A stretch of DNA of 60,446 nt from an uncultured Erysipelotrichaceae bacterium. Its GTDB lineage: Bacteria > Bacillota_I > Bacilli_A > RFN20 > CAG-826. The notes under the pieces are model-generated. The model made no database searches. It was not told the origin of the DNA and was given only the letters and a program-made list of their open reading frames with translations. Where the stretch lies: NCBI GenBank assembly GCA_902797795.1, contig CADBUF010000024.1:1-60446 (forward strand), in the 5' to 3' direction. Shown one piece after another: positions 137 to 21,898 of this stretch; the stretch's first letter is position 1, and every line of letters begins with the position of its first letter. Made by a program: the position numbers and the translations under genes.

Positions 137-2560
137 TTATTTTCTTTTCTTCTTTTTGAGGATTAATAATGCGCCAAGAGAGGCAACACTAACAGCGGAA
201 ATAGTGATAATAACAATTAACATAACGTTGCTATCTGTGCTTAATTCAGGCATAGAATTACCAACTACTACAACGTCTTGATTCCAAATAAAGTCATTAA
301 ATTCAGCTGTGCCGTATTTATTAACAATGTAACGATATTTGGCAATCATTGTGCCTAATTTGCCTTCGCCTTCGTAATCAAATCCGGCATCATGAATTGT
401 TTTTTGATCAGCGGCGGATAATAACTTGAATGCAGAGCTTTGACGTGACCATTCACCCTTTAATTTAATGAGATAATCATCACTACCTAAGGTGTTACAA
501 ACAACAGAGAGATCGTTATCAAATTTGGTTAAGAAGTCATCTAAATCTGCTGGAGTATAACCATTTTTTTCAACGGATAAATAGTTACCGTCATTTGTAT
601 TGAGATAGATGTCGAAGCATCCGCCAGCGTTGAATTTAAGATTTCCATCTTCTTCAGTTATTTCAGCACTAATACCTTCTGCGATATGTAATTTTTCAGG
701 ATCAATCGCAATATAGCCTTGTGATGGATCTTCATAAACTGCATCACCAAAATGATAGAATTTAACTTCTGCATTAGCAGCAAGTTCAACACCAGCGAGA
801 ACATATGTTCCTGCTTCTCCGGCTTTTTCTGGAGCTTTAATACCGTGTTTAACGTTCCAACCACAATGTGTACCAACTAAATAGTAGCCTTCTAAATGTC
901 CGGCCCATAATTTACCTGTTTCACCTTCAATATTGAGATATAAGGATCCACTAAAATCTTGAGCAAAGACTAGTTTGTTTTCGACTAATTCAACGTTAGT
1001 ATATTGAACGTCTTCTTTTGGTTCGGCGGCATATGTTGTTTTTTCTTCATATGGTGATTCTGAAACTTTGAATGTTAATTCGTCACCTGCTTTAAACGAT
1101 AACGCGGCAGACATAACTTCTGTTTCACCGTTAGGTGTCATTTCAACATCAGCAGCACCATTTAAGGAATAATAATATTTTGGTGCTTGAACTGGTTCAG
1201 AATGATCGAAAACATATAATTTTCCATCTTTAGAAGCAAAGATATCAACGGCCTTTTCGGTTTCAGAAGAATAATTACCTTCATCACCTTCAGCACCATT
1301 GATTGAGAACCATGTATCAACACCACTTAAGTGGCTACGAACTTTGAATGATTCACCTACAGAGACAGTGTAATTTAATAATTTGGCGTAGTTTTGCTCA
1401 TCCTCTCCGCCAGTTAATTCTGTAGCACCAGCGTACTTCCATTCGCTCTTACTACCAACAATGTAATAACCATCATGTTCTGGAACGTCTGGATCTACTG
1501 GTTCTGGTTCACCATGCTTTTCAACAGCTAAATAGTTAGAATCTTCTGTGTTGAGATAAAGGTCAAAATGTCCACCAGAATTAAATTTTAAATTACCATA
1601 TTCTCCTTCGATTTCAGCGTCAACGCCTTCACCAATGAGTAATTTATCAGAATTAATATTAATTGCGGAAGCTTTTGTATCATCAACTTTATGAAAGAAT
1701 TTGACTTCTGCATTATCAGCCAATTCAATATCAATTACTTCAAATGTTCCTGGATCTTCAGATTGTTCTGATGCTTTTGCAGCGTGCTTAATGTTCCATC
1801 CACTGTAAGAACCATTGAGATAATATCCTTCAGCAAAATTGCCTGCCCATAATTTACCTGTTGCACCAGAAATGTCTAAATATAAGACACCAGTATAGTC
1901 TTGGACAAAAACTAATTCGTCATCAACTAATTCAACAGTAGTTTCGGCAGCATCATCTTTAGGATTAACAGTGTAACTTTCTGCTGCCTTCTTAAATGTT
2001 AATTTGTCTCCAACTTTAAATGATAACTCAGCTGATTTAACTTCGGATGCGTTATGAGGAAGCATTTCAACATCTTCAGCACCATTTAATGAGTAGTAAT
2101 ACTTAACTTCAGGTACTGGTTCAGTATCAGGATTGTAGTCAGCCCAACCAGATCCATAAACATAAACTTTGCCATTATATTCAGTAGCAAATGTCCAGCT
2201 TGAAATAGGTTGTTCTTGGCTCTTCCATGTTTCACCATCGTATAATTGGAATTGCATCACACCAACTCCATTATATAAATCGGTGTAATCGACGACATAC
2301 AACAATTTTCCATCTTGAGTGTTGTCACCATTTCTAGACATCGTATATTGCATCCAGTTTTCAGCGTCTCCTTGACGATTAATGTTTAACTTAACCGTAT
2401 AAGAACCAACGACATTAGATGGAACTGCGTAATAAACTCTCGTCTCTGTGGCAGCCCCGACTTCCTTAACACCTGCTTTGCTTTGATGTGCACCAACGGC
2501 TACACCAACACCTAAAACCATAGCAAAAGCAGTTGTTAATATAAGTGATTTTTTCTTCAT
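137..2560 (-). CDS. Surface-anchored repeat protein (signal peptide plus C-terminal TM anchor), putative alpha-glucan-binding or scaffold protein
   Basis: 807-aa ORF with GGAG before the ATG. N-terminal signal peptide MKKKSLILTTAFAMVLGVGVAVGA. C-terminal hydrophobic helix followed by KKKKRK. Internal ~200-aa duplication flanks one GYYIVGSK module like those in 2920..6816. No catalytic motif seen. Confidence 0.85.
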   Translation of the reverse strand: MKKKSLILTTAFAMVLGVGVAVGAHQSKAGVKEVGAATETRVYYAVPSNVVGSYTVKLNINRQGDAENWMQYTMSRNGDNTQDGKLLYVVDYTDLYNGVGVMQFQLYDGETWKSQEQPISSWTFATEYNGKVYVYGSGWADYNPDTEPVPEVKYYYSLNGAEDVEMLPHNASEVKSAELSFKVGDKLTFKKAAESYTVNPKDDAAETTVELVDDELVFVQDYTGVLYLDISGATGKLWAGNFAEGYYLNGSYSGWNIKHAAKASEQSEDPGTFEVIDIELADNAEVKFFHKVDDTKASAININSDKLLIGEGVDAEIEGEYGNLKFNSGGHFDLYLNTEDSNYLAVEKHGEPEPVDPDVPEHDGYYIVGSKSEWKYAGATELTGGEDEQNYAKLLNYTVSVGESFKVRSHLSGVDTWFSINGAEGDEGNYSSETEKAVDIFASKDGKLYVFDHSEPVQAPKYYYSLNGAADVEMTPNGETEVMSAALSFKAGDELTFKVSESPYEEKTTYAAEPKEDVQYTNVELVENKLVFAQDFSGSLYLNIEGETGKLWAGHLEGYYLVGTHCGWNVKHGIKAPEKAGEAGTYVLAGVELAANAEVKFYHFGDAVYEDPSQGYIAIDPEKLHIAEGISAEITEEDGNLKFNAGGCFDIYLNTNDGNYLSVEKNGYTPADLDDFLTKFDNDLSVVCNTLGSDDYLIKLKGEWSRQSSAFKLLSAADQKTIHDAGFDYEGEGKLGTMIAKYRYIVNKYGTAEFNDFIWNQDVVVVGNSMPELSTDSNVMLIVIITISAVSVASLGALLILKKKKRK
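560..1180 (-). repeat. Copy 2 of the ~200-aa composite coding repeat (aa 461-667 of the 807-aa protein)
   Basis: KYYYSLNGAADVEM...GKLWAGHLEGYYLVG...GNLKFNAGGCFDIYLNTNDGNYLSVEKNG aligns colinearly with aa 153-350. Confidence 0.85.
1511..2104 (-). repeat. Copy 1 of the ~200-aa composite coding repeat (aa 153-350)
   Basis: KYYYSLNGAEDVEM...GKLWAGNFAEGYYLNG...GNLKFNSGGHFDLYLNTEDSNYLAVEKHG. Confidence 0.85.
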
Positions 2561-2919: not shown

Positions 2920-5900
2920 TTAAGCATGAAGGGCAACGTAGAAGAGAAGATTATTGCCTGACCATTTAACATAGATATCAATGGTAGCGTCCACTGTTAG
3001 GACGAAGTTACCATCACTATCTCTACTACCTAAACCCGCTATGGTGTCATTACCAGCTTGAGACCAGACATCTTCGTTCTTTTCAAGATTATGATATCTA
3101 ACCTTGATCTTTTCTCCAGCGGTAGCAGTATATCCTTTTAAAATAGCAATGTTACCATCTTTATCAACTTCAGAAAGTTCTGGAACCATAGTACTACCAG
3201 CGTATTTAAAGTTAGTTTTACTACCAACTAAATAATATCCAGTAACTGCAGGAACATCTGGTGCTTGATATTCGGCAACGTAGAACTTAAGGACATCGCC
3301 TTCATATTTCACAAAGACATTGATATTTGCGTCTTTGAGTAATTTGAAGTTACCATCATCATCAAGTTCACCTAAGCCTTCAACGGCGACTGTAGAACCC
3401 CATTTATCTTCAGATTTCTCTAAGTTATAGTAATGGACTTTGATGGTTTCATCTTTTTCTACCGCATGATTATATAGGATGGCGATATTTCCGTCCTTAT
3501 CAGCTTCGGAAAGTTCAGGAATCATAGTTGCGCCCGCAAACTTATAATCAGTCTTACTACCAACTAAGTAATAACCAGTAACTTCTGGAAGATCTTGCTC
3601 AGGTCCTGGACCTGGTTCTTGATATTCAGCGATGTAGAATTTAAGGGCATCGCCTTCATACTTAACAAATACGTTAATATGAGCATCTTTTAAGAACTTG
3701 AAGTTACCACTTTCATCGAGTTCGCCCAAACCTTCAACAGCGACTGTGGAACCCCACTTGTCTTCAGATTTCTCTAAATTATAATAGTGAACTTTGATGG
3801 TTTCATCTTTTTCAACAGAGTGCTTATAAAGGATAGCGATATTACCATCTTTATCAGCTTCAGAAAGTTCTGGAATAATTGGAGCGCCTAAGAATTTATA
3901 ATTGGTCTTGCTACCAACTAAGTAATATCCAGTAACTTCTGGTAAGTCTTCTTCTGGAGAAGGACCACTATGTTCAGCAACATAGAACATGAGTGTGTCA
4001 CCTTCCCATTTAACATAGATATCAATTGAAGCATCTTTAAGAAGGACGAAGTTACCCATATCATCAAGTTCACCTAAGCCTTCAACGGCGATAGTGCTTG
4101 ACCAATCGTCTTTGCCTTCTTCTAAGTTATAATAACGAACTTTAATGGCTTCATCTTTACTAGCTTCATAACCTTTTAAGATAGCGACGTTACCGTCTTT
4201 ATCTGGCTTATCTAATGAAGGAACTTCAGTAGAGTTCGCATATTTAAAGTTGTTCTTACTGCCAACAAGATAGTAACCATTATGTTCAGGAACATCTGGT
4301 TCAGTGTGTTCAGCGACATAGAATTCTAATTGTTCGCCTTCCCACTTCACATAGATATCAATATTTGCAGTAACAAGTAGTACAAAATTACCTTCATTAT
4401 CAACAGAGCCTAAACCTTCTGCTGGATGACCAAAGCCCCAAGCATCTTTACCTTCGCCTTCGTTGTAATAACGTGCTTTGATAATTTCACCGCTTGTTGC
4501 TGGATAGTTACGTAATACCGCAACATTACCATAGAAATCAGGATGTAATAATTCTGGGATTTCAGTAGCGCCTTTATATTTATAGTCTGTCTTACTTCCA
4601 ACAAGATAGTAACCATTATGATCTGGTACATCTACTGGGAATGAGCCTTCATAAACATTAACTTTAATTTCAAATGATTTAACAGTGTCGGTGACAGTGA
4701 TAATGACACTACCTTCAGCGTGACCAGTAACAGTAGCAATTCCGTTTTCACTAACAGTGACGCTAGCGATTAATGGGTTATTGCTTTCAACGATTAAGTG
4801 GTCAGCTAACCAGTTATGGATTTCAAATGTTTCTTCTTCTCCTGCTAATACTTCTAAATATGTCTTAGAAACATTTAAGGAGCCATCTTCAAGATAGAAT
4901 TGATAGAAACCATCATCATATTGTTTAGCGTAAATATTGTAATAACCAGTACTCATGACTTTGACGTTAGCGTCTCTAGCAGTACTTGTAAAGGCAAGTA
5001 AGCCATTAGCAAACGCACCAGCATTTTGTACATGTTCACGATCTGGATCGCTTTCTTCATATCTTTGAATCCAGCTACTATCATCAGAAACAGCGGAATC
5101 AACAGTGTTATGGACGTAGAACTTGAATTCATCGCCAGCGGTTAAATACATGGTGACAGAAGATTGAATGTAGCCTTCTCCAGTGTCACTCATATCGCCA
5201 AACTTATAAGCGTATTTAGCTTGTGTCCAAGCATCATATTCACTAGTAGCAGCACTGACTTCAAGAGGTTTAGAGAAGTTCTTATTACCTCTTAAATAGA
5301 CGTGCGCGTATTCGAATAAGACTGGACGTTCTTTAATTGTAAGAGTATGTGTGTTAGTTGCTAAACCACAGCTAGCGGTAATAATGACTGGTCCAAAGTC
5401 TAAAGGAGTAACAGTAACCTTGTTACCATCTTCTTGTAACAAGACTTTAGAAGCAGGGTTAGCAGTCCAAGTAACTGTCTTGTCAGAAATATTTTCTGGA
5501 ATGAGATTAGCAGTTAAAACAACTGGATCATCATCGAGATACATCTCTTTAGTACCAGAAATAGAAATAGAAGTACAATAGAATTCAACATTAACAGTAA
5601 TAGAAGCACTGATTTCGACATCATCTCTACCTAATGTTGAAATTTTAATAGTTGTAGATCCTGGACCTTTAGCGGTGATTAAACCAGTTAATGGGTCAAC
5701 AGTTGCTACTTTATCATTTAAGGTTGAATACATGGCGTTCATCTTACTTGGGTTATGTCCACCATTTTCATCATCATAAGAGATGACTAATTGATATTCA
5801 GCTTTTGCATCACTAGCATTAGAAAGATTAATTTCATCACCGATAACGTCTTCAATATGAATTGCGGTTGCATATACTTGATAGACATCTAAGGTGAATT

Positions 5901-6816
5901 CTTCGGAATCTTCTTCACAGTGAGCTTTGAATTTAGCTTCACCTTCTTTAATACCAGTAACAAGACCATTTTCATCGATTGTGGCAATTTCTGGAGTTAA
6001 AGCAGTATAAGAAATACCTTCAGTAGAAATAGCTTTTGCATTAGCAGGTAAAACTTCACAATCAAGTTGGACACTCTTACCAACTTCAACTTTGTCAGTT
6101 TCACAAGAAAGTGTCACACTTTCAACGTGAACGGTACGGTCTTTAATATCAAAAGTAAATTCAACAGGTTCTTGATTTGGTAAATAATCACTACTAACAG
6201 TGACTGTTACTGTGCCTTCTTCACCTTTAGTAGTAACAGTATTGCTACTAATAGAGATAAGAGAATCGCCACCTTCACTAATTTCATATTTAAGAATATT
6301 TTGTGTGGTATCTATTGGTTCAAAAGCGACATCGAATTCATAAGAGGAATTCAAATCTAAATCAGTAGTAGGAGCACTAATAGTGAATGATTTGATTCTT
6401 TTGATAACTTCAACACTGGATTTAATGGCATCAAATCCGCCTTTAGCGTCACTAACGATAACATTAGTTTTACCAGCGCTGACCGCGGTTAATAAGCCAT
6501 CATCCGTAATTGAAGCAATATTTGGATTTTCAACTTCCCACACTAAAGAGGAAAGATCCGCATCTTTTGGATGAACGGAATAAGTATATTGATAGCTAGA
6601 TGGGTGAGACTCATCATTACTTTCGTCTGGAACATATAAAGTAACATTCTTCTTATCTAATAAAAATTCAGAAATAGGAAGAGAATATTCGCTCCATTCT
6701 TCAGTAATGATACTACTACTTACTCTAGCGTTCTCTTGTAAAGAAGAACCTCCGCAAGAAGTTAATGCTAAAGAAAGAGCAGCTAAAGGAATAAGGAATT
6801 TAAATTTAGTTCTCAT
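2920..6816 (-). CDS. Giant non-catalytic surface lipoprotein: multiple Big_2 Ig-like domains plus five tandem GYYLVGSK modules
   Basis: 1298-aa ORF. Lipobox LALTS|C. AAGGAG RBS. Start overlaps the upstream stop (ATGA). Several Big_2-like segments (e.g. VTLSCETDKVEVGKSVQLDCEVLPANA). C-terminal 570 aa is a 5-unit tandem repeat. No GH13 or other enzyme motifs seen. Confidence 0.9.
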   Translation of the reverse strand: MRTKFKFLIPLAALSLALTSCGGSSLQENARVSSSIITEEWSEYSLPISEFLLDKKNVTLYVPDESNDESHPSSYQYTYSVHPKDADLSSLVWEVENPNIASITDDGLLTAVSAGKTNVIVSDAKGGFDAIKSSVEVIKRIKSFTISAPTTDLDLNSSYEFDVAFEPIDTTQNILKYEISEGGDSLISISSNTVTTKGEEGTVTVTVSSDYLPNQEPVEFTFDIKDRTVHVESVTLSCETDKVEVGKSVQLDCEVLPANAKAISTEGISYTALTPEIATIDENGLVTGIKEGEAKFKAHCEEDSEEFTLDVYQVYATAIHIEDVIGDEINLSNASDAKAEYQLVISYDDENGGHNPSKMNAMYSTLNDKVATVDPLTGLITAKGPGSTTIKISTLGRDDVEISASITVNVEFYCTSISISGTKEMYLDDDPVVLTANLIPENISDKTVTWTANPASKVLLQEDGNKVTVTPLDFGPVIITASCGLATNTHTLTIKERPVLFEYAHVYLRGNKNFSKPLEVSAATSEYDAWTQAKYAYKFGDMSDTGEGYIQSSVTMYLTAGDEFKFYVHNTVDSAVSDDSSWIQRYEESDPDREHVQNAGAFANGLLAFTSTARDANVKVMSTGYYNIYAKQYDDGFYQFYLEDGSLNVSKTYLEVLAGEEETFEIHNWLADHLIVESNNPLIASVTVSENGIATVTGHAEGSVIITVTDTVKSFEIKVNVYEGSFPVDVPDHNGYYLVGSKTDYKYKGATEIPELLHPDFYGNVAVLRNYPATSGEIIKARYYNEGEGKDAWGFGHPAEGLGSVDNEGNFVLLVTANIDIYVKWEGEQLEFYVAEHTEPDVPEHNGYYLVGSKNNFKYANSTEVPSLDKPDKDGNVAILKGYEASKDEAIKVRYYNLEEGKDDWSSTIAVEGLGELDDMGNFVLLKDASIDIYVKWEGDTLMFYVAEHSGPSPEEDLPEVTGYYLVGSKTNYKFLGAPIIPELSEADKDGNIAILYKHSVEKDETIKVHYYNLEKSEDKWGSTVAVEGLGELDESGNFKFLKDAHINVFVKYEGDALKFYIAEYQEPGPGPEQDLPEVTGYYLVGSKTDYKFAGATMIPELSEADKDGNIAILYNHAVEKDETIKVHYYNLEKSEDKWGSTVAVEGLGELDDDGNFKLLKDANINVFVKYEGDVLKFYVAEYQAPDVPAVTGYYLVGSKTNFKYAGSTMVPELSEVDKDGNIAILKGYTATAGEKIKVRYHNLEKNEDVWSQAGNDTIAGLGSRDSDGNFVLTVDATIDIYVKWSGNNLLFYVALHA
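2923..4632 (-). repeat. Five tandem coding repeats of 336-354 nt (112-118 aa)
   Basis: Unit boundaries are ~4632/4296/3954/3600/3258/2923. Each unit runs D(V/L)P..(N/T)GYYLVGSK...GNF.LL.DA.I.(I/V)(Y/F)VK(W/Y)EGD.L.FY(V/I)AE. Units 3 and 4 are ~90 % identical in protein and roughly 85 % in DNA by eye. Confidence 0.9.
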
Positions 6817-7796
6817 TTGTTAAATTCTCCTTGTGGGACATCGGCCCAAATTCCATAGATAAAGACGAAGTCATTAGTAGTACCAACACAATATGTTGAT
6901 AAATCAATTAGGTCATCTTTAGTATCAATAATTGAGTGATCACTCCATCCGATGAAATATGGGAAATCATCAGTTGGGGCAGTTGTAGGAGTAGCAGGAA
7001 CTTTTCCACTTTCAGCAATTGGACGAGTTTGATACCACTTAAAGGAAGCAAGCATTCTTGTTCCGGTGGTGTCATCTTCATCAGCGAGGTTATAGTTGAT
7101 AAAGAAGACAACCCAAGCGTTCATTTCTTCGTCTTCATCACCAGGTCCGCCTCCTCCATTAGGAATAACAGTAATGGTACAAGTTGCGACTTTTCCATTA
7201 GCAGTAGCGGTAACAATAGCGGTGCCATCGGCATCAGCGATGACACGTCCACTATTATCAACACGAATAATGCTGGAATTTGTCGTATAAGTAACATCGG
7301 CAGGTTCACTTGTGGTGGCGACTAATAAATATTCTTCACCAATCATCATCGTGTGTGAGCTAGCGTTTAATCTAATAGTAAATTCATCAGGATCTTCTGG
7401 AATTTCTGGATCCACTGGATCAACTGGGCTATCTGGTTTAGGAACATAAATTGTACAAGCGGCAGATTTGTAACCAACCATCAATGTAATTACACAAGTT
7501 CCTCCACCCATCGCAGTAACAAAGCCATTATCAATAGTAGCAACTCTAGTATTACTACTTCTCCATAAAACGCCAGCGGCCACAGGTGTATCACCTACAT
7601 ATGTAATAATAGGATTAAGAGTAAAGCTCTCACCAATTGAAAGAGTCATGAAGTTGACATCAAATTCAACTTTTTCGACCATCGCATCGTTTACATTTAC
7701 TTCATTTGCGGTATCTTTTAAAACTGTGCCACAAGAAGCTAAAGGCGATAATAGAAGTAAAGAAGATAAGAATAATAATTTAGTGTTTTTCATCAT
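6813..7796 (-). CDS. Surface lipoprotein with two Big_2-like domains and a Listeria-Bacteroides-repeat-like C-terminus
   Basis: 327 aa. Lipobox SPLAS|C. GGAGG RBS. Pro/Asp-rich linker PVDPVDPEIPEDP. C-terminal FIGW...FIYGIW pattern. Confidence 0.85.
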   Translation of the reverse strand: MMKNTKLLFLSSLLLLSPLASCGTVLKDTANEVNVNDAMVEKVEFDVNFMTLSIGESFTLNPIITYVGDTPVAAGVLWRSSNTRVATIDNGFVTAMGGGTCVITLMVGYKSAACTIYVPKPDSPVDPVDPEIPEDPDEFTIRLNASSHTMMIGEEYLLVATTSEPADVTYTTNSSIIRVDNSGRVIADADGTAIVTATANGKVATCTITVIPNGGGGPGDEDEEMNAWVVFFINYNLADEDDTTGTRMLASFKWYQTRPIAESGKVPATPTTAPTDDFPYFIGWSDHSIIDTKDDLIDLSTYCVGTTNDFVFIYGIWADVPQGEFNK

Positions 7797-7811: not shown

Positions 7812-10800
7812 TTAACCAAGTTTATAGACGAATATGGAGTAGCTCCACATCTCTAAAGTATCAGAATCATATTTCTTAGGATTCTTTGAAGAATAAGTAA
7901 AGGTTTGTTGACCAATACTAAGTGAGGTTCCGTTATTTTCTCTTGTGCCTAAGATAACGTGGACACCGTTTGGATTATAAATACCAATCGCGCCATTCTC
8001 AGAGCAATTGCCCCACATTGAGAAGTTATCTTGAACACCTTGTTCACTCATTTGTCCATAGTCAAATCTTGCGGAATTCTTACGTAATTCAATCATCTTT
8101 TTCCAGGCATCAAATTTTTCAAGGGTTCTTGTAGAACCAATACTCACTTTTCTATCCCATTTAAAGGAGTTAACACTGTCAGGAAGCTTATAAGAGTTAT
8201 GGGAAACCATTTCATTTTTCTCATACATCTTCACTTCACCTGTGCAAAGAATAGAAATAGGAGCGCTTGGATCATAACCAGGATCCTCAGGATTGTTCTT
8301 TGGATTATAGTTCATATAAGCGGGGAAAGGACGAACAATCGCCTCATCTCCACCTTTAGTTAATTCTTTATATTCAGGAGTAGCTTTCACGCCTTGAGAA
8401 GGAATATCGACATCAGTAATAGTCTTTGTACGATATAATTCTTCTCCACCTTGCATAAATGCGACACCATTAGAGGCCATGACAATGCCATGTGCCATAA
8501 TAGAAGCAGAAACTAATTCAGAAATGTCTGGTTCACCACCGCTTTTTGGTCTAAGTGGCTCTTGATAAGAGTAGCCAGTTGCCATTTCATCTTTATCGTT
8601 ATAGCCTTTAGTGGCTAAGCAATAACGTAATTGGTCATAAACAGTGTAATTATCGTGACAACTTGCATAAGCAATCATTTGATTTGGATTAGCACCTTTA
8701 TGCTCACCGTTATTATTTCTTGAATGGTAACCTTTGATTAAATCAAAGATGATGTTAGCTTTTCCTGCGGCGTCATATTTACCATTACTAACAAATCCCC
8801 ATGTTGGGTATTTATTGCCTTTTTCGGCCCAACCAGAGTCGTTTCCACCTCTAATGGCGTTACGACCTTCATCGTTAAAGCAACCAACATAACCATTAGT
8901 GTTATAAAGCATGCTATAAACGTTTTCAGTTGTGGTTCCAGTTGCGCCTTCATCAAAGATGGTGCCTCCACTTGACCAACCTTCGCCATAAATATAAATA
9001 TCAGGATCAATTTTGGTTAAAGCGTCTCTAGCGGCTCTAATGGTTTCAGTATCAATTAATCCCATTAAGTCGAAACGGAAGCCTTTAATTTTGTATTCAC
9101 TAGCCCACCAGCAAAGAGAATCAACAATGTATTTTCTCATCATTGGGGCTTCAGTTCTTACGTCATTAGCACATCCACTACCAGCGGTATATGCCCATTC
9201 AGAATTATATCTGAAATAATATTTAGGCATAATTTTAGTAAAGCAAGAGTTAGGTGCACTACTAACGTGATTATAAACAACGTCCATAATAATACGGGTA
9301 TGGTTCTTATTAAGAGCGTATTCTTTGATTAAGTTTTTGTATTCTCTAATTCTGGCTAAAGGATCTTCTGGATCAGAAGAATATGCACCTTCAACACAGT
9401 TGTAGTTAAGTGGGTTATATCCCCAGTTAAATTTATATTTATTGTAATCTTCTTCATTATCATAGTCGAAGACAGGAAGAAGTTGAACAGCGTTAACACC
9501 GAGTTCTTCAATATGATCAAAACCAGTTGTTACTTCATCCGCACTACCTTTAGCGTATCTTGTACCTTTTTCACTAAAGGCGTCAAATGTGCCGGGTTTA
9601 GAAGTTCCACCCCAAGATTCATCCATGGTCAAATCACGAACATGGACTTCGTAAACTGTTAATTCTTGTGGGTTTTTAATGTCATAACCCGTTGTTCCGT
9701 TCCAAATAGATGGAACCTTATCCCAATCGGTAGGATTAGCTTCTTCGCTATCCTTATCATAGATATAACCTCTAATACCGTTATATCCCACCGCTTTTGC
9801 GTATGGGTCAACAGCTTCAATTTTGGTGCCGTTTGGGTTAGTGACTAAGTAGTTATAGAATCTATCTTGTCTAGTAGTCATATCTCCAGCAATAGAGACT
9901 TCCCAAACACCGTTACCAGTGTAGAACATTCTCGTTGTTTTACCTGCATCAGAACCACCATTAGCAGCAGGTTTTCCGCTTAAATAAAGTTTCAAAGTAA
10001 CAGCAGCGGAAATTGGTGACCACACCTTAAAGGTGGTCTTTTCTTTGGTGTAAGTAACACCTAAGTCATTTCCACTATAGTTATAATGTTCATTAAACCT
10101 TGTGGTTTTGTATAAATTTTCAAAGCTGACGAATACTTTTCTTGCTGGGTATCCTTCATCTTTTGTGTAACCTTCATAATAAGATTCAATTAGGTATTGA
10201 ACGTTAATACGAGCGGTGTAATTAAGTTTGATGTCGAAATCAGCATCACTTGTAGGTGTCTTCTTTTCTTTCATCAAATAATATTCTTTGTTTTTGACTT
10301 GGCTAGCTGCATCACTATTTAAATAATTGGCGTCAAAAGCATAAAGTTTATAACTAACAGGACCTTTGCCTTTCGCATCCGCACTACTAACACAGTGAAT
10401 AGTTTTCCAATCAGTAAACTTTGCAGTCGAGATTTTTGGAATTTTGGTTTCTTCTTCATTAGTGCAGATTTCAATGGCGTTACCTTCGCCAGGAATGAGC
10501 CATAATTCTAATAAACCATCTTCTTTTTCACCAATAAATTCAGCGTATGTGGCATAGTCAATTTTAATATCGTCAGATTGACCAGCCCATGTACCACCAA
10601 ATTTGATGATGAACCATAAAGAAGTTAAATGTTTTCCAGTAATTGGGTCATATTTGTAGTTGAGTTCTTCAAGGTTAAGAGTGATATCCATTGATACAGT
10701 GTCATGTTTATCAGCAGCTCTTTCAACACCATCAAGACCATCAACCCAAGTATAGAATCTACGTGAATTACATCTACCATCATCGTTTAAATAATGGAGT

Positions 10801-11033
10801 TTGACGACATCAAGGGTTTCAATAATCGCAGTTGGATCTGGTTCGTCATCACTAGCGCGTAAAGCTTCATAAGGAACAAGAGTGTTATCTTTATCATCAT
10901 AGATGACTGGGTCATCAGTGGTAAAAACGTTTTCTTGTTTGGCTTCTTCTTTAGAAGAGCACATCGCTAAAGATAAGGAACCAAAGGCTAAGAATGATGC
11001 ACAAATAGATGTGATAATTTTGTTCTTTTTCAT
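7812..11033 (-). CDS. pulA: Type I pullulanase (GH13), lipoprotein
   Basis: GH13 regions DVVYNHV, GFRFDLMG, YGEGW and YASCHDN, plus the pullulanase signature YNWGYNP. CBM48-like TTFKVWSPISAAVTLKLY. Signal ends ...SLSLAM|C. Start set at ATG 11033 (GGAGG 7 nt upstream); the ORF track starts at 11039. Confidence 0.9.
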   Translation of the reverse strand: MKKNKIITSICASFLAFGSLSLAMCSSKEEAKQENVFTTDDPVIYDDKDNTLVPYEALRASDDEPDPTAIIETLDVVKLHYLNDDGRCNSRRFYTWVDGLDGVERAADKHDTVSMDITLNLEELNYKYDPITGKHLTSLWFIIKFGGTWAGQSDDIKIDYATYAEFIGEKEDGLLELWLIPGEGNAIEICTNEEETKIPKISTAKFTDWKTIHCVSSADAKGKGPVSYKLYAFDANYLNSDAASQVKNKEYYLMKEKKTPTSDADFDIKLNYTARINVQYLIESYYEGYTKDEGYPARKVFVSFENLYKTTRFNEHYNYSGNDLGVTYTKEKTTFKVWSPISAAVTLKLYLSGKPAANGGSDAGKTTRMFYTGNGVWEVSIAGDMTTRQDRFYNYLVTNPNGTKIEAVDPYAKAVGYNGIRGYIYDKDSEEANPTDWDKVPSIWNGTTGYDIKNPQELTVYEVHVRDLTMDESWGGTSKPGTFDAFSEKGTRYAKGSADEVTTGFDHIEELGVNAVQLLPVFDYDNEEDYNKYKFNWGYNPLNYNCVEGAYSSDPEDPLARIREYKNLIKEYALNKNHTRIIMDVVYNHVSSAPNSCFTKIMPKYYFRYNSEWAYTAGSGCANDVRTEAPMMRKYIVDSLCWWASEYKIKGFRFDLMGLIDTETIRAARDALTKIDPDIYIYGEGWSSGGTIFDEGATGTTTENVYSMLYNTNGYVGCFNDEGRNAIRGGNDSGWAEKGNKYPTWGFVSNGKYDAAGKANIIFDLIKGYHSRNNNGEHKGANPNQMIAYASCHDNYTVYDQLRYCLATKGYNDKDEMATGYSYQEPLRPKSGGEPDISELVSASIMAHGIVMASNGVAFMQGGEELYRTKTITDVDIPSQGVKATPEYKELTKGGDEAIVRPFPAYMNYNPKNNPEDPGYDPSAPISILCTGEVKMYEKNEMVSHNSYKLPDSVNSFKWDRKVSIGSTRTLEKFDAWKKMIELRKNSARFDYGQMSEQGVQDNFSMWGNCSENGAIGIYNPNGVHVILGTRENNGTSLSIGQQTFTYSSKNPKKYDSDTLEMWSYSIFVYKLG

Positions 11034-11046
11034 AATCATTCCTCCT

Positions 11047-11829
11047 TTATTTATTCCAATATCCTAGGGTATGAGCGTTTCCACTTCCACCAGAGATGTA
11101 ACATGCGTTACCCGTCATTTCTGAGAAGGCAACATCCACAGTTTGAACTGAATTACCGTTAGATTTACCGTTAATAATGAATTTAGTGTAAACAGTTGGA
11201 TCAGCGGTAAAGACATAGATATCTTCGCCGTATTCATTAGTGGAATCGAAAGTTAAGCTATCTCCTGGCCAACTACTCTTTTCACCATTATCACCGAAGA
11301 GATAAATATGTAAATCATCCCATTTCCAGTTGTTGGTGAAGTAGAAGGTATTGGCGTCTCCACCACTTCCTCCGCCGCCACCGCCGCCAGAGGATCCTCC
11401 ACCAGTAGGTCCATCAAAGATCGCATAAAGTAATTGATTATCTTGTGAAGGAACAGTGGTCACTTTGTCAGGGAAAATGTTCCCGTTATATTGGAACCAT
11501 CCTCTAAAGACCACTTCATCACCTAAAGACGAATAAGCTTCAGGTAAAGCAGTACCAGCTTCATCTTTTAAAGCAACACAATATTCATATTTTCCAGCAA
11601 CATCGCTTCCTTTAACTTCTTCATCATCAATAGTGATTCTTCCATAACGTGAAAGCATCAAATAAGTTGTGTGACTACTACTTGGATCACGATTATAAAC
11701 TGGAACATTATCTTCGTAATATAAATGCGAAGGAGTTTCTTCTTTAACTTGATTTTGGACTGGTTCATTTAATTGTCCACAACCAACTAAGAAGAGAAGA
11801 GGAATTAATTTGAATAATTTCATTTTCAT
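11047..11829 (-). CDS. Starch-binding lipoprotein with a C-terminal CBM25/26-type module
   Basis: 260 aa. Lipobox LFLVG|C. Gly/Ser linker GGGSSGGGGGGGSGG. C-terminus FYFTNNWKWDDLHIYLFG...SWPGDSL...KFIINGKSNGNSVQTVD matches the CBM26-like W/WPG/QT.D pattern. Confidence 0.8.
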   Translation of the reverse strand: MKMKLFKLIPLLFLVGCGQLNEPVQNQVKEETPSHLYYEDNVPVYNRDPSSSHTTYLMLSRYGRITIDDEEVKGSDVAGKYEYCVALKDEAGTALPEAYSSLGDEVVFRGWFQYNGNIFPDKVTTVPSQDNQLLYAIFDGPTGGGSSGGGGGGGSGGDANTFYFTNNWKWDDLHIYLFGDNGEKSSWPGDSLTFDSTNEYGEDIYVFTADPTVYTKFIINGKSNGNSVQTVDVAFSEMTGNACYISGGSGNAHTLGYWNK

Positions 11830-11842
11830 CGTTCTATCCTCC

Positions 11843-14800
11843 CTATTTAGCGTAGGCTACAAATCCATGAGCAGGAATATTTGTAGCGCTGGCTCCATTA
11901 CCAAATGAGCCAATCACAGTCCAACCCATCTTTTGATAGGATTTAGCAGAATCAGTGTTATTAATGCAAACACAGACAGTGCGTGTTCCATCAGTAAATT
12001 CAAGGTAACATTCACCTTTTTCTTGGCCAGTAATTGAGCCGTAATTAGTGACATAACCATAAGTTGGATATTTTTCATGGTTCTTCACAGCACAGATGGC
12101 TTTGAAGTAATTGAGCATGGAATTCGAATCGTTAGCTTGTTCAGAAGCAGTAGCGAGGTTTTGGTTGTAGTAATCCCACTGGATTTCAATACCACCAAAG
12201 CTGAAGTTAGTGACTTCGCCTTCACCTTTAACTTTGCCCCATCTCATTGGTTGACGATACCATCTATCAACGTTATTGCCGTGGTCATCATAAGCCTTAC
12301 CAGTTGCGGCGTCTGGGACTAAGTCTTTAAGATTACCGGACATACCGAGTTCATCACCATAGTAGATCCAGCTCACACCTGGGTTAAGAATAGTTACGGC
12401 TGCGTAATATTTCGCCATATTCTTCGCGTACGTATCATTAACTTGGGCTTGCGTTGCATGTCCTTGTTCGACTTCTTTTTGGCTATGGACTTCCTTGTGG
12501 TTATCACCATTAACGCCTTTTGGAATGTCGTCATCATGTTGAGCAGCGTGGTTAATCAAACGATAAATATCGTGGTTAGAAGTAAAGGAACCATTGATAA
12601 GTCCGTTTGGACGATACGCTTTATATGTATTGATTGTGGATTGTAATTTATAACCGATTGAACTCTCATAGAATTGATTGAGGTTGAAGTAGGTTTGGAA
12701 GTCAAATTGAGAATCCATAGAGGCATAGAATGGCGCCATTCTTGCATCCCAACCATCAAAGTTTTCACCAACTAAGAAGCAATTTGGATAAGCAGATTTT
12801 AACGAACCAGCAAATTGTTTCCAGAAGTTGACGTTAAGAGTGCGGTCATAAGAATAGTCATTATCGGCATCGATATATTTTTGCATTTCTTCGTTCCAAT
12901 AATGTCTAAAGCCAACATCATAAACGATATCATGTTTGCTTAAGTTGAGATTGGTGTTAAGTTCACCTAATAAGTAGATGTGTTTGGTCGCATCAAGACG
13001 GAAACCATCAAGACCAAAACTTAACCAATATTTACACATATCAGTCATATAGTCTCTTGTTGCTTGGCTATTATAGTTAAGTTCAGCCATACCACTACCA
13101 AATTTACCAAAGTAGTAATAATCACTTTCACCGTCTTTGAACCAAAGTTCATTGAGTTTTGCATCGATTGGATCAGTTCCACCGATGGTTGCGGTTGTGA
13201 AGTTTTTGGATTGGTCAGCGGCCTTTTGATCACCTTCATAAGTGATATTACCATCCCAAACTCTCACTTTATCGCCTTTATATTTCCAAATGTACATGTC
13301 GCGGTAATTGATTTCTTTCCCGTTAACTTTTTCAACAACAGCGGCTTCGGATTTTTGGAATAAGACGTTACTCTTAGAGGTGTGGTTGATAACCATATCC
13401 ATGAGGACTTTCATGCCTCTGTGGTGAGCGTCATATAATAATTCTTGATAATCTTCGATAGTTCCAAATTTGGAATCGATACGATAATAGTCAGTAACAT
13501 CATATCCGTGATAAGAGTTACTTTCTTGAATTGGGGTAAGCCATAATACTTTGACACCTAAATTTTCAAGATAGTCGAGTTTGTTGATAATACCACGTAA
13601 ATCACCCATTCCATCTCCATCACTATCAGCGAAAGCAGGAACGAAGATTTGATAGCCAACACCTGGACGATCATCAAGGAATGTTGTCGAAGTTGCGATA
13701 CCCTTCTTATATTCGTCTTTTTCTAATAAGGTTGTGTCATCAACACTGACGTATTTACCAGTCTTATCAGAAATAGTTGGATTAACAAATGTTTGTGTAA
13801 TGCTTGAGGTGGAATAACCGCTAACGTTTCCTTGAACGCAGAAAACATGTAAGAAGCTATTTTTTCCTTCAGGCATAAGTTTCTTTAAGTCTTTAATGTA
13901 GATTTCTCCACCACCATCAGAGACCCAGTTTGTTTTACCAGTCATCTTGGTTTGGTCAACGATGAAGAATCCCATAGTTGCGGATTTCTTTTCCCAAAGA
14001 TCCCAGGAAATAAGTGGTGAATCAACACCAGTTTTTCCACCTGGAAGTTCTTCTAAGGAAATATCAACAGGAATAACAATACCGTGCTCGTCCATATAGA
14101 TTTCATCTTGGTCAACACCAGTCTTACCAGTGTCTTTGTTTGTTAAGAAACCATATGTTTGAGGGATAACACCTGCTAAGTTTTTAATTTCTGGATTAGC
14201 GCCCCATAAGCTACCTTCTAAGCTTCTTGGTTTTGATTGCCAAGCCCAGACAGCCCAGTTAGCGTAATCACTATTTGGTCTAAAATAATGGAAGTATATA
14301 TGTCCTGGTTTACTCCAAAGAGCAATTTGTTGTTCGTATTCACTATCGCCACCTTGTGCTAAAACGCTGATGGTACATTGTGCAGAAGAAGATTTTCCTT
14401 CAGCGTTAGTAACAGTGATAGTAACAATTGCAGTACCAGAAGAAATAGCAGTAACTAAACCGTTATCATCAACAGTAGCAACACCACCATTTGAACTTTG
14501 CCATGTTTGAGTAATAGCTGTACCAGTAACAGTAGCACCTAATTGAGTTTCATCACCGATTTCAAGAGTGGCATCTGGACGAGAGATATCAACATGGATG
14601 AAGTCTGGTTGAGAAGCATCAATAACGTGTAATGCACATGAAGCGGTAATTGTACCAGCAGAAACAACGATATTAGTTTCACCAGCTTTATTAACTGTGA
14701 CGGTTGCGCTATTTCCACTACCACTTACAGTAGCAACATCACTAACGGTGCTGCTCCATGATGGGTTAACAGTCATACCGTTATTCGTTGTGACTTGCGC

Positions 14801-15289
14801 ATTAAGGGTGAAACTTCTTGGACCACCATCTACAAGCGAGAATGTTTTGTTGGTCTCAGAAAGAATAATGGAAGTGACAATGGTTTGGCTGCCTCCACCT
14901 CCACCAGATCCACCACCGGATCCACCTTGTGTAAGAACACTGACGATGCAGCTTGCGGAAGCTCGATTACCAACTAAAGCAGTAACAACTGATGTACCGG
15001 AACTGACACCATATAAAGTGACAGTCGAACCAGTGCCAGTAAGACTCACGACTGATGGATCACTATTTTTCCAAGTGACTTCACTAGCAATCGCTGCACT
15101 AGCGCCAGTGATGACCACAGATAATTCTTGCTTTTGGCCAACATGTAAAGCTGCGGTTGGGGCAAGAGTTAAAGTGTAGTCTTCATAGGATGCTCCGGTG
15201 TCGTTAGATTTCGAGCTCACCAAATCGCTCGAGCATGACGAAATGAGCGCGCACGCGAGAACGAAAGGAACTAAAAATTTTCTTTTCAT
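11843..15289 (-). CDS. GH13 alpha-amylase family lipoprotein (amylase or neopullulanase-like) with 3 Big_2 domains and a CBM41-like module
   Basis: Motifs DGDGMGDLRGIINKLDYLENLGV, DMVINHTS, GFRLDATKHI, VGENFDG and FTSNHDI. Lipobox LISS|C. CBM41-like HYFRPNSDYANWAVWAW. Start at 15289 (GAGGAG 8 nt upstream) preferred over the ORF-track start 15313. Confidence 0.9.
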   Translation of the reverse strand: MKRKFLVPFVLACALISSCSSDLVSSKSNDTGASYEDYTLTLAPTAALHVGQKQELSVVITGASAAIASEVTWKNSDPSVVSLTGTGSTVTLYGVSSGTSVVTALVGNRASASCIVSVLTQGGSGGGSGGGGGSQTIVTSIILSETNKTFSLVDGGPRSFTLNAQVTTNNGMTVNPSWSSTVSDVATVSGSGNSATVTVNKAGETNIVVSAGTITASCALHVIDASQPDFIHVDISRPDATLEIGDETQLGATVTGTAITQTWQSSNGGVATVDDNGLVTAISSGTAIVTITVTNAEGKSSSAQCTISVLAQGGDSEYEQQIALWSKPGHIYFHYFRPNSDYANWAVWAWQSKPRSLEGSLWGANPEIKNLAGVIPQTYGFLTNKDTGKTGVDQDEIYMDEHGIVIPVDISLEELPGGKTGVDSPLISWDLWEKKSATMGFFIVDQTKMTGKTNWVSDGGGEIYIKDLKKLMPEGKNSFLHVFCVQGNVSGYSTSSITQTFVNPTISDKTGKYVSVDDTTLLEKDEYKKGIATSTTFLDDRPGVGYQIFVPAFADSDGDGMGDLRGIINKLDYLENLGVKVLWLTPIQESNSYHGYDVTDYYRIDSKFGTIEDYQELLYDAHHRGMKVLMDMVINHTSKSNVLFQKSEAAVVEKVNGKEINYRDMYIWKYKGDKVRVWDGNITYEGDQKAADQSKNFTTATIGGTDPIDAKLNELWFKDGESDYYYFGKFGSGMAELNYNSQATRDYMTDMCKYWLSFGLDGFRLDATKHIYLLGELNTNLNLSKHDIVYDVGFRHYWNEEMQKYIDADNDYSYDRTLNVNFWKQFAGSLKSAYPNCFLVGENFDGWDARMAPFYASMDSQFDFQTYFNLNQFYESSIGYKLQSTINTYKAYRPNGLINGSFTSNHDIYRLINHAAQHDDDIPKGVNGDNHKEVHSQKEVEQGHATQAQVNDTYAKNMAKYYAAVTILNPGVSWIYYGDELGMSGNLKDLVPDAATGKAYDDHGNNVDRWYRQPMRWGKVKGEGEVTNFSFGGIEIQWDYYNQNLATASEQANDSNSMLNYFKAICAVKNHEKYPTYGYVTNYGSITGQEKGECYLEFTDGTRTVCVCINNTDSAKSYQKMGWTVIGSFGNGASATNIPAHGFVAYAK

Positions 15290-15314
15290 AAAAATTTCTC
15301 CTCGATTGGACAAA

Positions 15315-16915: not shown

Positions 16916-19471
16916 TTAATATAACCTAATATTCAATTCGTTTTCGTAGATTTGTGTCTTTTCTAAGTCTGGGATTAATTTGACTTTTTCGCCGAGTTGA
17001 ATATCTCTTTCTTGGTTGATATAAACCACGACCTTCTCACCGAAAAGTTCACCGGTGCATTTATACATCTTCACATCACCATAATTGACAAATGAGACCA
17101 CTTTGAATTCAAGACCATCTTTATCTTCTTTAAAACCATTATGTGGAACTTCCACTCTAAAGGTCTTAGTAAAGACTTTATTTCCTAAACCTTGAATAAT
17201 TCTATTAGTGATAGCATCTGGTATGAGTTGATATTTTGTTTCGTATTTGAAGAAGAAAATTAATTGAGCGTGTAAGAGATCATCTTCTTTTTTCTTAGCG
17301 AGTTCTTTTTCTTTATTTGCGTAAAGTTTAGAAGCGCTTTCAAGAGGATAATATTCTTCTTTAAATTTATCTTGTTCGCCTTTAATTTCAGCCTTCAAGA
17401 AGTTCTTGTTTTGAGAGAAGTGAGCTTTTAAGCCATTGAGTTCGGTCTCTTTATCAAATTCTAAAGAATTAGTCTTTCTTTCAATGTCGTTAGCCTTCAT
17501 TTGTGGGAAAGATTCTCTAAAGATAGAATAGGCGAGTCTTCTTTGACGACGAGATTCTCTATCGCGGTTATTCATCATCGATTGTTTATAATCGCGCTTT
17601 TCATCTTCTTTCATCTTTTTATATTGCTCGTTGATCTTCGCCATTTCATCTTTATAGATTTGTTTATGTTTGGCTTTAGCCTCTTTTACGTCACGAGAAT
17701 ATTTAGCTTTCAATTCCTTAAGCTTCAGATTTGCTTCATTTTCTTTAGTCTTAAGTTCAGCTTGTTTTTCTATAACTTGAGGAGCTTTTTGTTCTTGTAA
17801 AGCAGCAGCTTCAGCAAGTTTAGCTTCTTTTTCAGCAGCTAAATCAGCTTCAAGTTTTTCATAACGAGCGTTAACTTCATTCACACGGTCATCACGAATC
17901 TTATTAAATGATTCATTTTCAGTGACCGCAAAAGCAGTCTTAAGATTAACAAATTGAGCGAATAAATTATCACGTTCCGCTAAAGGAGAAGCGACAAGTT
18001 TATCGTTTTCATCTCTAAATGTTGCTCTAGAATAATCAACAGCGAATTTAATCTTATCGCCTGCTTTGACCTTCTCACCAACCTCAACAAATAATTCTTT
18101 ATCAGCGGCTTTAACAAGGGCAATACGTGCTTCTCTATGTTCTTCAACTAAAATAACTTTCGCGTCAACTTCACCTTCTCCAACTTTAAGCGCGTCAAGA
18201 GGTAAAGATACTGTGCCATTTTTAAGGAAATCTACTGGAATTGATTCTGGTTTAGTAGAAACACCAAATAAATCCATTTTTTCATTTTCAATGGTCACTG
18301 GAAGAACATTATGATCTGGGACAGGTGGAATAATAGTCATTTCGCTTTCTGCATCAAATAAATGAATCTTTTCAACATTGACACGTGCTTTAATGACATC
18401 ACCTGGGACATGACCGAGTTTATTAGGTGCTTTAATAATCACCGAGGTTGTTGATTCTCCACCTAAACCTTCGATTTCTTTTAAATCACCATAGATAAGG
18501 GTTTCATTACCGAGTTCTTCAAAGTGAGAGATGGTAACATCGACGATGTTGTCACCCTTGCTGAGTTCTTCTTCTTCAGCAGAAATTGCTTCACATCTAA
18601 AGCCTAATACGATTGGTAATTTGCCTTGTAAATATTTCTTTTCAGCTTTAAGTAATTGTTGCTTTGAGAGTTTTAATGGGGCTTGTTCACAATCACTCCA
18701 TTTCACATACACTCCATCTTTTTCTTCTTGTAAAGTAACATTAAAGAAATTCATTTGTGGAGTACCAATAAATCCAGCGACGAATTTATTGATTGGGTGA
18801 TCATATAAGTTTTGTGGAGTGTCGATTTGTTGAACACGTCCAAGTTTCATAACAACAACACGAGTACCAAGTGTCATAGCTTCGACTTGGTCGTGAGTAA
18901 CATAAATAAATGTTGTCTTTAATTGTTGATGGAGTTTAGAGATCATGCTTCTCATTTGACCTCTTAATTTCGCATCTAAGTTCGATAATGGTTCGTCAAG
19001 AAGCATAACTTTAGGATTACGAAGAATCGCTCTTCCTAAAGAGACACGTTGTCTTTGACCACCAGACATCGCTTTTGGTTTACGGTCTAAGTAATCGGTT
19101 AAACCAAGAACATCTGCTGCCCACATCACCTTTTCATGAATTTCAGTTCTTGGAACCTTACGCAATGTAAGACCAAAGGCCATATTTTCATAAACGGTCA
19201 TATGTGGATAAAGAGCGTAGTTTTGGAAAACCATTGCGATATCTCTATCTTTTGGTTGCATATCGTTAACAAGAGTGTCGCCGATATAAAGTTCACCACT
19301 AGAAATATCTTCTAGACCAGCAATCATTCTTAATGTGGTTGATTTACCACAACCAGAAGGACCAACGAAGACGATAAATTCGCCATCTTTAATGTCCATA
19401 TTAAAGTCGCTAACAGCCTTATGTCCGTTAGGATAAACTTTGTAAATGTGTTCTAATTTTAGTGAAGCCAT
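16916..19471 (-). CDS. malK: MalK/MsmX-like sugar ABC transporter ATPase with a ~470-aa C-terminal extension
   Basis: Walker A GPSGCGKST, signature MSGGQRQR, Walker B MLLDEPLS, H-loop THD. A MalK-type regulatory domain runs to ~aa 378. Beyond it lie extra OB/TOBE-like segments and a long K/E-rich predicted coiled coil (851 aa total). Confidence 0.9.
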   Translation of the reverse strand: MASLKLEHIYKVYPNGHKAVSDFNMDIKDGEFIVFVGPSGCGKSTTLRMIAGLEDISSGELYIGDTLVNDMQPKDRDIAMVFQNYALYPHMTVYENMAFGLTLRKVPRTEIHEKVMWAADVLGLTDYLDRKPKAMSGGQRQRVSLGRAILRNPKVMLLDEPLSNLDAKLRGQMRSMISKLHQQLKTTFIYVTHDQVEAMTLGTRVVVMKLGRVQQIDTPQNLYDHPINKFVAGFIGTPQMNFFNVTLQEEKDGVYVKWSDCEQAPLKLSKQQLLKAEKKYLQGKLPIVLGFRCEAISAEEEELSKGDNIVDVTISHFEELGNETLIYGDLKEIEGLGGESTTSVIIKAPNKLGHVPGDVIKARVNVEKIHLFDAESEMTIIPPVPDHNVLPVTIENEKMDLFGVSTKPESIPVDFLKNGTVSLPLDALKVGEGEVDAKVILVEEHREARIALVKAADKELFVEVGEKVKAGDKIKFAVDYSRATFRDENDKLVASPLAERDNLFAQFVNLKTAFAVTENESFNKIRDDRVNEVNARYEKLEADLAAEKEAKLAEAAALQEQKAPQVIEKQAELKTKENEANLKLKELKAKYSRDVKEAKAKHKQIYKDEMAKINEQYKKMKEDEKRDYKQSMMNNRDRESRRQRRLAYSIFRESFPQMKANDIERKTNSLEFDKETELNGLKAHFSQNKNFLKAEIKGEQDKFKEEYYPLESASKLYANKEKELAKKKEDDLLHAQLIFFFKYETKYQLIPDAITNRIIQGLGNKVFTKTFRVEVPHNGFKEDKDGLEFKVVSFVNYGDVKMYKCTGELFGEKVVVYINQERDIQLGEKVKLIPDLEKTQIYENELNIRLY

Positions 19472-19486
19472 ATGACTTACCTCCTA

Positions 19487-21879: not shown

Positions 21880-21898
21880 AAATAAAGCCTAAAACTAA

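Follow-up and report, generated by a model that had tools for sequence, protein, structure and literature searches.

The closest described counterparts of the protein presented here are SusE and SusF (PDB 4FEM and 4FE9), lipid-anchored, non-catalytic surface proteins of a starch operon in which beta-sandwiches of ~100-120 amino acids (aa) stand in tandem, with two starch-binding modules in SusE and three in SusF (PMC4173775). Modules of the SusE/SusF type are named X25 in the literature and are ~120-aa beta-sandwiches that also occur in Sas20, Sca5 and Sca3 of R. bromii (PMC9112005). Together with the pullulanase of Bacillus acidopullulyticus, these proteins place SusF-like modules in Firmicutes, including tandem modules in non-catalytic starch-adherence proteins (PMC9112005). 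In the three-module protein BT3088 (SGBPdex, PDB 9SJI) the affinity climbs steeply with polymer size, a sign of avidity (PMC13450635). Here we analyzed a stretch of 60,446 nucleotides (nt) from an uncultured Erysipelotrichaceae bacterium (assembly GCA_902797795.1, contig CADBUF010000024.1; hereafter the window), in which a gene for a 1298-aa lipoprotein ends in five head-to-tail units carrying the motif GYYLVGSK. With a probability of roughly 75%, the unit is a ~110-aa beta-sandwich from a strongly diverged SusE/SusF-type (X25-like) branch, and the 1298-aa protein is a putative non-catalytic surface glycan-binding array.

Like SusE and SusF, the 1298-aa protein combines tandem beta-sandwiches of this size with a lipid anchor, the lack of a catalytic function and a place in a starch operon, and the predicted aromatic platform of its units would resemble the single glycan site that each SusE/SusF module builds on aromatic residues. 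The host, in contrast, belongs to Gram-positive-derived rumen Bacilli and not to Bacteroidota, and uptake is assigned to an ATP-binding cassette (ABC) transporter instead of SusC and SusD, which are absent. The protein also differs in having five canonical modules and one divergent module, in having about five Big_2 domains where SusE and SusF have one N-terminal Ig-like domain, and in that its units fall below the Pfam thresholds and replace the first platform Trp by Tyr or Phe. Sas20 and Sca5 attach by dockerin/cohesin or sortase, whereas the lipoprotein has a lipid anchor, and in those two proteins a pair of modules builds a single shared clamshell site. BT3088, unlike the protein described here, binds alpha-1,6 dextran and does so in a SusC/D utilisome (PMC13450635).

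A five-unit array at the C-terminus of a lipoprotein

Positions 2923-4632 on the minus strand correspond exactly to aa 729-1298 of the lipoprotein, its last 570 residues. The motif GYYLVGSK was found at aa 735, 847, 963, 1081 and 1193, and the head-to-tail units measured 112, 116, 118, 112 and 106 aa. Pairwise amino-acid identity among the five units was 50-69%, and units 3 and 4 shared 86.6%, a value that a preliminary description of this DNA had put at ~90%. A hidden Markov model (HMM) built from the units scored each of them at 173-193 bits (E 1e-53 to 1e-59), and Tandem Repeats Finder (TRF) detected a 354-nt period at 3258-3950. Because unit spacing, identities, HMM scores and the TRF period agree, the repeat is real, correctly placed and far above chance, and the earlier proposal of five tandem GYYLVGSK units in the C-terminal 570 aa was borne out. 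The linkers, previously called Pro-rich, were short and rich in Glu as well as Pro (EPDVPEHN, GPSPEEDLPEVT, EPGPGPEQDLPEVT and APDVPAVT). When the six-frame translation of the whole window was scanned with the unit HMM, the only matches beyond the five units fell in the neighbouring 807-aa gene.

The domains detected in the 1298-aa protein were Big_2 and the module only, with no catalytic domain found by Pfam, NCBIfam or the family HMM. A lipobox was called by eye from the N-terminus (LALTSC, followed by GG). The lipobox, the lack of a catalytic domain, the tandem modules and the cognate enzymes and transporter encoded in the operon are the features of the surface glycan-binding lipoprotein (SGBP) class.

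The preliminary description had also proposed that units 3 and 4 arose by a recent duplication, with possible copy-number variation by recombination. At the DNA level the two units were 81% identical, the longest identical run was 23 nt, and among 108 codons there were 38 synonymous and 15 non-synonymous differences. These values show that the duplication was not recent, and that part of the proposal was overstated. The excess of synonymous over non-synonymous differences indicates that purifying selection acts on both copies. No copy-number variation was seen in the lipoprotein itself, as the exact 1298-aa sequence was present on seven public contigs and no length variants were found, the only close relative being 99% identical and also 1298 aa long. 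Such variation was seen in a sister lineage, where a 1019-aa protein (P0013) and a 1125-aa lipoprotein (L003, 7265-10642) were 91.8% identical and differed by one in-register 105-aa indel, giving two and three module copies, respectively. The one-unit indel has the signature of unequal recombination; the alternative is a collapse in short-read assembly. The units clustered by protein and not by position (the lipoprotein described here, P0001, and a group of L003, P0013 and P0010), which indicates independent expansion or homogenisation in each lineage.

Relationship of the unit to SusE and SusF

The preliminary description had suggested a new domain that could not be placed in any known family of carbohydrate-binding modules (CBMs). 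Single units from the window gave no match in Pfam (even at E ≤ 10), NCBIfam or the PDB sequences, nor did a profile made from the window copies alone match anything in these three collections. A first AlphaFold2 (AF2) model, built on a 6-row alignment with a predicted local distance difference test (pLDDT) score of 76, had no structural neighbour in Foldseek. These results could be taken to support an entirely new carbohydrate-binding family without kinship to described modules, a reading to which we give very little credence in view of what the wider family revealed.

When 1.84 billion representative proteins were scanned exhaustively with HMMER, 117 clusters were obtained at E < 1e-3, 60 of them below 1e-10, all unnamed and all metagenomic, and mostly from uncultured rumen and gut Bacilli. 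From these, a profile of 84 module instances (A3) and a core-only profile of the 58 instances nearest to the window units (A4) were made. Against the PDB, A3 matched B. thetaiotaomicron SusF (4fe9_A) at E 1.2e-9, with profile positions 5-88 on chain positions 150-234, the first starch-binding module of SusF. The next match was BT3088, a SusF-like dextran-binding protein, at E 0.003. The family motif dGYYlvGsktnW and the corresponding SusF sequence DGYYIVGDFTGW have the pattern GYY(L/I)VG....W in common. Pfam PF16411 (SusF_SusE) matched 13 of the 84 instances (best E 3.3e-7), and one peripheral relative (P0094) scored 31.6 bits, above the gathering cut-off of 27.5. The cut-off was reached by peripheral relatives only and not by the window units; among the 58 core instances no match was below E 0.09, with one at that value. 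We considered whether a few ordinary SusE/F-like sequences drove the link to SusF. This was ruled out by removing them, since the core-only profile still had SusF as its sole significant PDB match (E 5.3e-6), in the same register as with A3. Core and peripheral module sets aligned to each other in hhalign with a probability of 99.6% (E 1.8e-24).

The structural comparison gave the same answer. With the 84-row alignment, the AF2 model of unit 2 reached a pLDDT of 97.3 and a predicted template-modelling (TM) score of 0.88, and a Foldseek search of 350,542 PDB chains, one of the checks that had been proposed earlier, placed SusE (4fem_A) and SusF (4fe9_A) as the top two matches, both with probability 1.00 and with TM scores of 0.55-0.58; the matches below them were noise. 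The deeper alignment thus corrected the misleading result of the 6-row model. The Foldseek E-values are weak alone, and the fold carries weight because it agrees independently with the sequence result. In addition, PF26120 (CBM_1st_SusF), a family of the newer Pfam, had a faint match on the 807-aa protein in precomputed annotation and was recorded on ~17 of its homologues; it was not recorded in the precomputed annotation of the five-unit lipoprotein. The statement that the unit fits no known CBM family therefore holds for tools applied to single units, but the family profile and the fold both relate it to the starch-binding modules of SusE and SusF. Rather than a new kind of domain, the module is a diverged and currently unannotated branch of a known family.

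Other starch-binding families were considered and rejected. CBM26/CBM25 and CBM20/CBM48 are starch-binding beta-sandwiches that co-occur with the module in the same proteins or operon, and no profile or structural similarity of the unit to any of the four was detected. No unit had a Pfam match to CBM25 or CBM26, which agrees with the earlier separation of the module from these families, and neither family nor X25_BaPul_like was present among the 25 families listed of the 46 in Pfam that matched the 84 instances (E ≤ 1). Likewise, CBM20 and CBM48 had no match for the units, and the CBM26 matches in homologous proteins fell outside the modules. PF22058, which we take to be X25_BaPul_like, was annotated at the level of the full-length sequence for some homologues of the 807-aa protein. 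The family had no direct sequence or Foldseek match to the X25 structures of Sas20, Sca5, Sca3 or the pullulanase.

Most of the family clusters were proteins of 600-900 aa built like the 807-aa protein. They begin with a signal peptide, in many cases carry a CBM26, and continue with one to three modules and a conserved C-terminal domain before ending in a C-terminal membrane anchor. Family members co-occurred with CBM26 (23/65), CBM20 and PF26120/PF22058/PF16561. Since no cluster representative had more than three strong module copies, the five-unit array is the largest seen. Queries with the C-terminal or the N-terminal half of the lipoprotein found no close orthologues in species-representative genomes, where distant loci turned up only by a degenerate-pattern search, and syntenic loci bearing the module were found in three other rumen metagenome-assembled genomes (MAGs).

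Predicted binding platform and ligand

Four positions of the unit were strongly conserved among the 84 instances. Position 17 was aromatic in 80 (W 52, F 21, Y 7), being Tyr or Phe in the five lipoprotein units and Trp in copy b of the 807-aa protein. Trp at position 65 (79/84), Asn at position 82 (74/84) and Lys at position 52 (68/84) were all kept in the window. In the alignment with SusF, position 17 fell on the Trp of GDFTGW and position 65 on a second Trp, 45 residues further in SusF; these are chain positions 162 and 207, presumably the platform residues numbered W177 and W222. The corresponding spacing in the units, taken from the alignment, was 48 residues, with Tyr or Phe at the first position. 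In X25 modules, which likewise have two conserved aromatic positions, two Trp lie 41-46 residues apart and overlay SusF residues 170-272 (PMC9112005).

Within its starch-utilisation locus, the module very probably serves as a non-catalytic binder of alpha-glucans, a function predicted from homology and context, and the preliminary description, which had guessed alpha-glucan binding, was probably right. The N-terminal lipid anchor would tether the 1298-aa protein to the cell membrane, and the Ig-like Big_2 stalk would project the binding array outward, where the divergent module and the five canonical modules on their short Pro/Glu-rich linkers could form a multivalent array at the tip. In each module, a platform of two aromatics (Tyr/Phe17 and Trp65) may stack on the helical alpha-1,4-glucan chain, with hydrogen bonds probably given by the conserved polar residues Lys52 and Asn82. 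Lone modules are expected to bind weakly, and the tandem array would gain avidity for starch in polymeric or granular form, for amylopectin or for glycogen. The array could then tether the substrate, or the cell, beside the lipoprotein amylase and pullulanase of the same operon, and the products of these enzymes would enter via the co-encoded ABC transporter.

Several points weigh against this interpretation. The link to SusE/SusF is transitive and runs through the family profile, because no unit alone matches Pfam, NCBIfam or the PDB, and the Foldseek E-values for SusE/SusF (0.01 and 0.065) are weak, with TM scores of only 0.55-0.58. Furthermore, all five lipoprotein units have Tyr or Phe, not Trp, as the first platform aromatic, and the adjacency and exposure of the two aromatics are predictions, as is glycan binding for every member of the branch. 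Among the characterized relatives, the SusF-like BT3088 binds dextran and not starch (PMC13450635), and single X25 modules of Sas20 and Sca5 bind nothing alone (PMC9112005).

There are two alternatives. In the first, the SusE/F fold would serve another glycan, either alpha-1,6-linked glucans (pullulan, dextran or the branch points of amylopectin) or granule surfaces as opposed to soluble chains. The dextran-binding BT3088, the second PDB match of the family profile, shows that proteins of this fold can differ in their ligand, and alpha-1,6-rich glucans therefore stay a live alternative. The type I pullulanase within the operon and the Tyr/Phe in place of Trp also speak for it. In other respects, however, the locus carries a canonical starch/maltodextrin set (GH13 amylase, CBM26-like protein, CBM48 and MalK), the family co-occurs with the starch-specific CBM26 and CBM20, and nothing matches it better than the first module of SusF, which binds starch, so that we regard another ligand as improbable.

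In the second, the units would be Ig-like spacers, or protein-protein interaction modules that scaffold surface enzymes, and would not bind glycans. The modest Foldseek similarity to SusE/F would allow this, and in R. bromii the X25 module of Sca3 retains only one Trp, and Sas20 modules in isolation show no binding (PMC9112005). A long Big_2 stalk is already present in the protein. The platform aromatics and Asn82, needless in a spacer, are nevertheless among the most conserved positions of the family, the modules lie at the distal end rather than linking the anchor to a functional domain, and the duplicated units are under purifying selection. A role as spacer or interaction module is thus quite improbable, and a non-catalytic alpha-glucan-binding array remains the preferred reading.

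This reading proposes a testable function for ~570 residues and for 117 protein clusters that current annotation leaves blank. SusE/F-type modules reach well past Bacteroidota into uncultured rumen Bacilli, where they are too diverged for the Pfam SusF_SusE model. The operon is a Gram-positive-type starch operon with all extracellular parts lipid-anchored and with a five-module binding protein that is predicted to be functionally analogous to SusF. For the annotation of carbohydrate-active enzymes and for rumen starch fermentation and ecology this is a useful increment, with no new principle.

The starch operon and its neighbouring genes

The lipoprotein gene is part of a single tightly packed operon at 2920-23707 on the minus strand, with intergenic gaps of -4 to 76 nt (Table 1). 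In the order of transcription, the genes encode a solute-binding lipoprotein, two permeases, a MalK-type ATPase, two small lipoproteins, a GH13 alpha-amylase, a CBM26-like lipoprotein, a type I pullulanase with CBM48, a Big_2 lipoprotein and the 1298-aa protein; the 807-aa gene comes next after a gap of 359 nt. The pullulanase matched TIGR02104 at E 3e-139 with 464.7 bits, below the curated cut-off of 504.5.

Table 1. Coordinates of the lipoprotein, its domains and the surrounding genes in the window
Feature	Position	Strand	Evidence
807-aa protein gene: signal peptide, three modules, conserved C-terminal domain, C-terminal transmembrane anchor	137..2560	-	translation, family HMM
Module copy c of the 807-aa protein, aa 557-664	569..892	-	family HMM 40.6 bits, E 3.2e-12
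Module copy b, aa 358-455, GYYIVGSKSEW	1196..1489	-	window HMM 119 bits; family HMM 97.5 bits
Module copy a, aa 244-351, GYYLNGSYSGWN subtype	1508..1831	-	family HMM 41.5 bits, E 1.7e-12
1298-aa surface lipoprotein gene, putative multivalent starch-binding protein	2920..6816	-	open reading frame list and translation
Module unit 5	2923..3258	-	unit HMM 173 bits
Module unit 4, aa 1075-1186	3259..3594	-	unit HMM 193 bits
Module unit 3, aa 957-1068	3613..3948	-	unit HMM 188 bits
Module unit 2, aa 841-952, unit used for modelling	3961..4296	-	unit HMM 190 bits
Module unit 1, aa 729-840	4297..4632	-	unit HMM 181 bits; family HMM 98.7 bits
Divergent beta-rich domain of ~145 aa, aa 497-645	4882..5328	-	family HMM 8.4 bits; conserved in orthologous lipoproteins
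Ig-like Big_2 stalk, aa ~35-496	5329..6714	-	Pfam Big_2, five stretches, E 1e-33
Lipoprotein signal peptide, aa 1-21, with lipobox LALTSC at aa 16-21 and Cys21	6754..6816	-	N-terminal sequence MRTKFKFLIPLAALSLALTSCGG
327-aa Big_2 lipoprotein, 4-nt overlap with the 1298-aa lipoprotein gene	6813..7796	-	Pfam Big_2; lipobox
Type I pullulanase (GH13 with CBM48), lipoprotein	7812..11039	-	NCBIfam TIGR02104, Pfam CBM_48, lipobox
260-aa lipoprotein with CBM26-like module	11047..11829	-	Pfam CBM26 E 4e-6, 27.3 bits, just below the cut-off of 28.1
GH13 alpha-amylase with Big_2 domains, lipoprotein	11843..15313	-	Pfam Alpha-amylase E 4e-73; lipobox
ABC importer: MalK-like ATPase (851 aa), two permeases, solute-binding lipoprotein with Big_2	16916..23707	-	Pfam ABC_tran and OB_MalK, BPD_transp_1 (two), SBP_bac_8

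All eight exported proteins of the operon carry a lipobox, including the two small proteins of 221 and 285 aa, and none of the eight has an LPXTG, S-layer homology (SLH) or dockerin signal. Anchoring by lipid throughout would fit a Bacilli lineage that is wall-less or reduced. With an ABC importer at the locus and neither SusC nor SusD, the locus falls outside the Sus-like polysaccharide utilization loci (PULs) and resembles a PUL only in how it works. The gatB gene shared 91% identity with its counterpart in the rumen MAG 'Erysipelotrichaceae bacterium RUG042', and the next relatives were rumen and gut 'Bacilli' MAGs, including the CAG:826 type. A conceivable, if doubtful, extension is that the branch is the founding set of a separately numbered CBM family and the lipoprotein the core of a SusF-centred, fully lipid-anchored 'Sus without an outer membrane'. 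If so, the system arose in, or moved into, reduced-genome Bacilli, and the change from Trp to Tyr/Phe together with the five-fold array would give a binding mode unseen in SusE/F, for example a specificity for granules or branch points.

Upstream of the five units, the preliminary description had seen one degenerate copy of the module. This ~145-aa domain (aa 497-645) scored only 8.4 bits with the family HMM and recurs once or twice in orthologous lipoproteins as a conserved domain of its own, but after iteration its C-terminal third, and no other part, aligned with the module instances. By sequence, the domain is thus probably related to the module. Two copies were found in L002, P0068 and P0010 and one clear copy in L001. 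The orthologous lipoproteins of two related MAGs (L001, 5727-8897, and L002, 5618-8827) have these domains without strong GYYLVGSK units, and the binding array therefore uses different module subtypes in different lineages.

The three copies earlier proposed for the 807-aa protein were all significant with the family HMM, and their coordinates agreed with those given before. The HMM built from the window units alone recognized copy b strongly (119 bits) and copies a and c marginally; copies a and c were 57% identical to each other. The 807-aa protein also contains an internal duplication of ~200 aa (aa ~150-351 and ~460-664), each half consisting of a KYYYSLNGA..VEM.. segment followed by a module copy. 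Ahead of the membrane anchor, at aa ~670-775, lies a conserved C-terminal domain (…AKYRYIVNKYGT…DFIW), which is common to most family members and had no Pfam match. None of 86 close homologues of the protein had a name in any source. Inside the 359-nt gap between this gene and the lipoprotein gene, the public record has a gene for 65 aa (L005, 6915-7112; ~2705-2902 on the minus strand of the window), which had no Pfam match. A promoter and terminator scan of the gap found 13 promoter-like sites compared to 11.6 expected, and no terminator.

The MalK-like ATPase (16916-19471, minus strand) is 851 aa long, more than twice the usual length, with ABC_tran and OB_MalK on the first ~300 residues only and no Pfam match on the C-terminal ~550 aa. 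The ABC solute-binding lipoprotein (21899-23707, minus strand) and the amylase (11843-15313, minus strand) have N-terminal Big_2 domains, as if they were raised on a stalk. Finally, a 1442-aa protein (25591-29919, minus strand) combines Endonuclease_1 with Big_2 and Big_3 domains and is probably a large surface-displayed nuclease.

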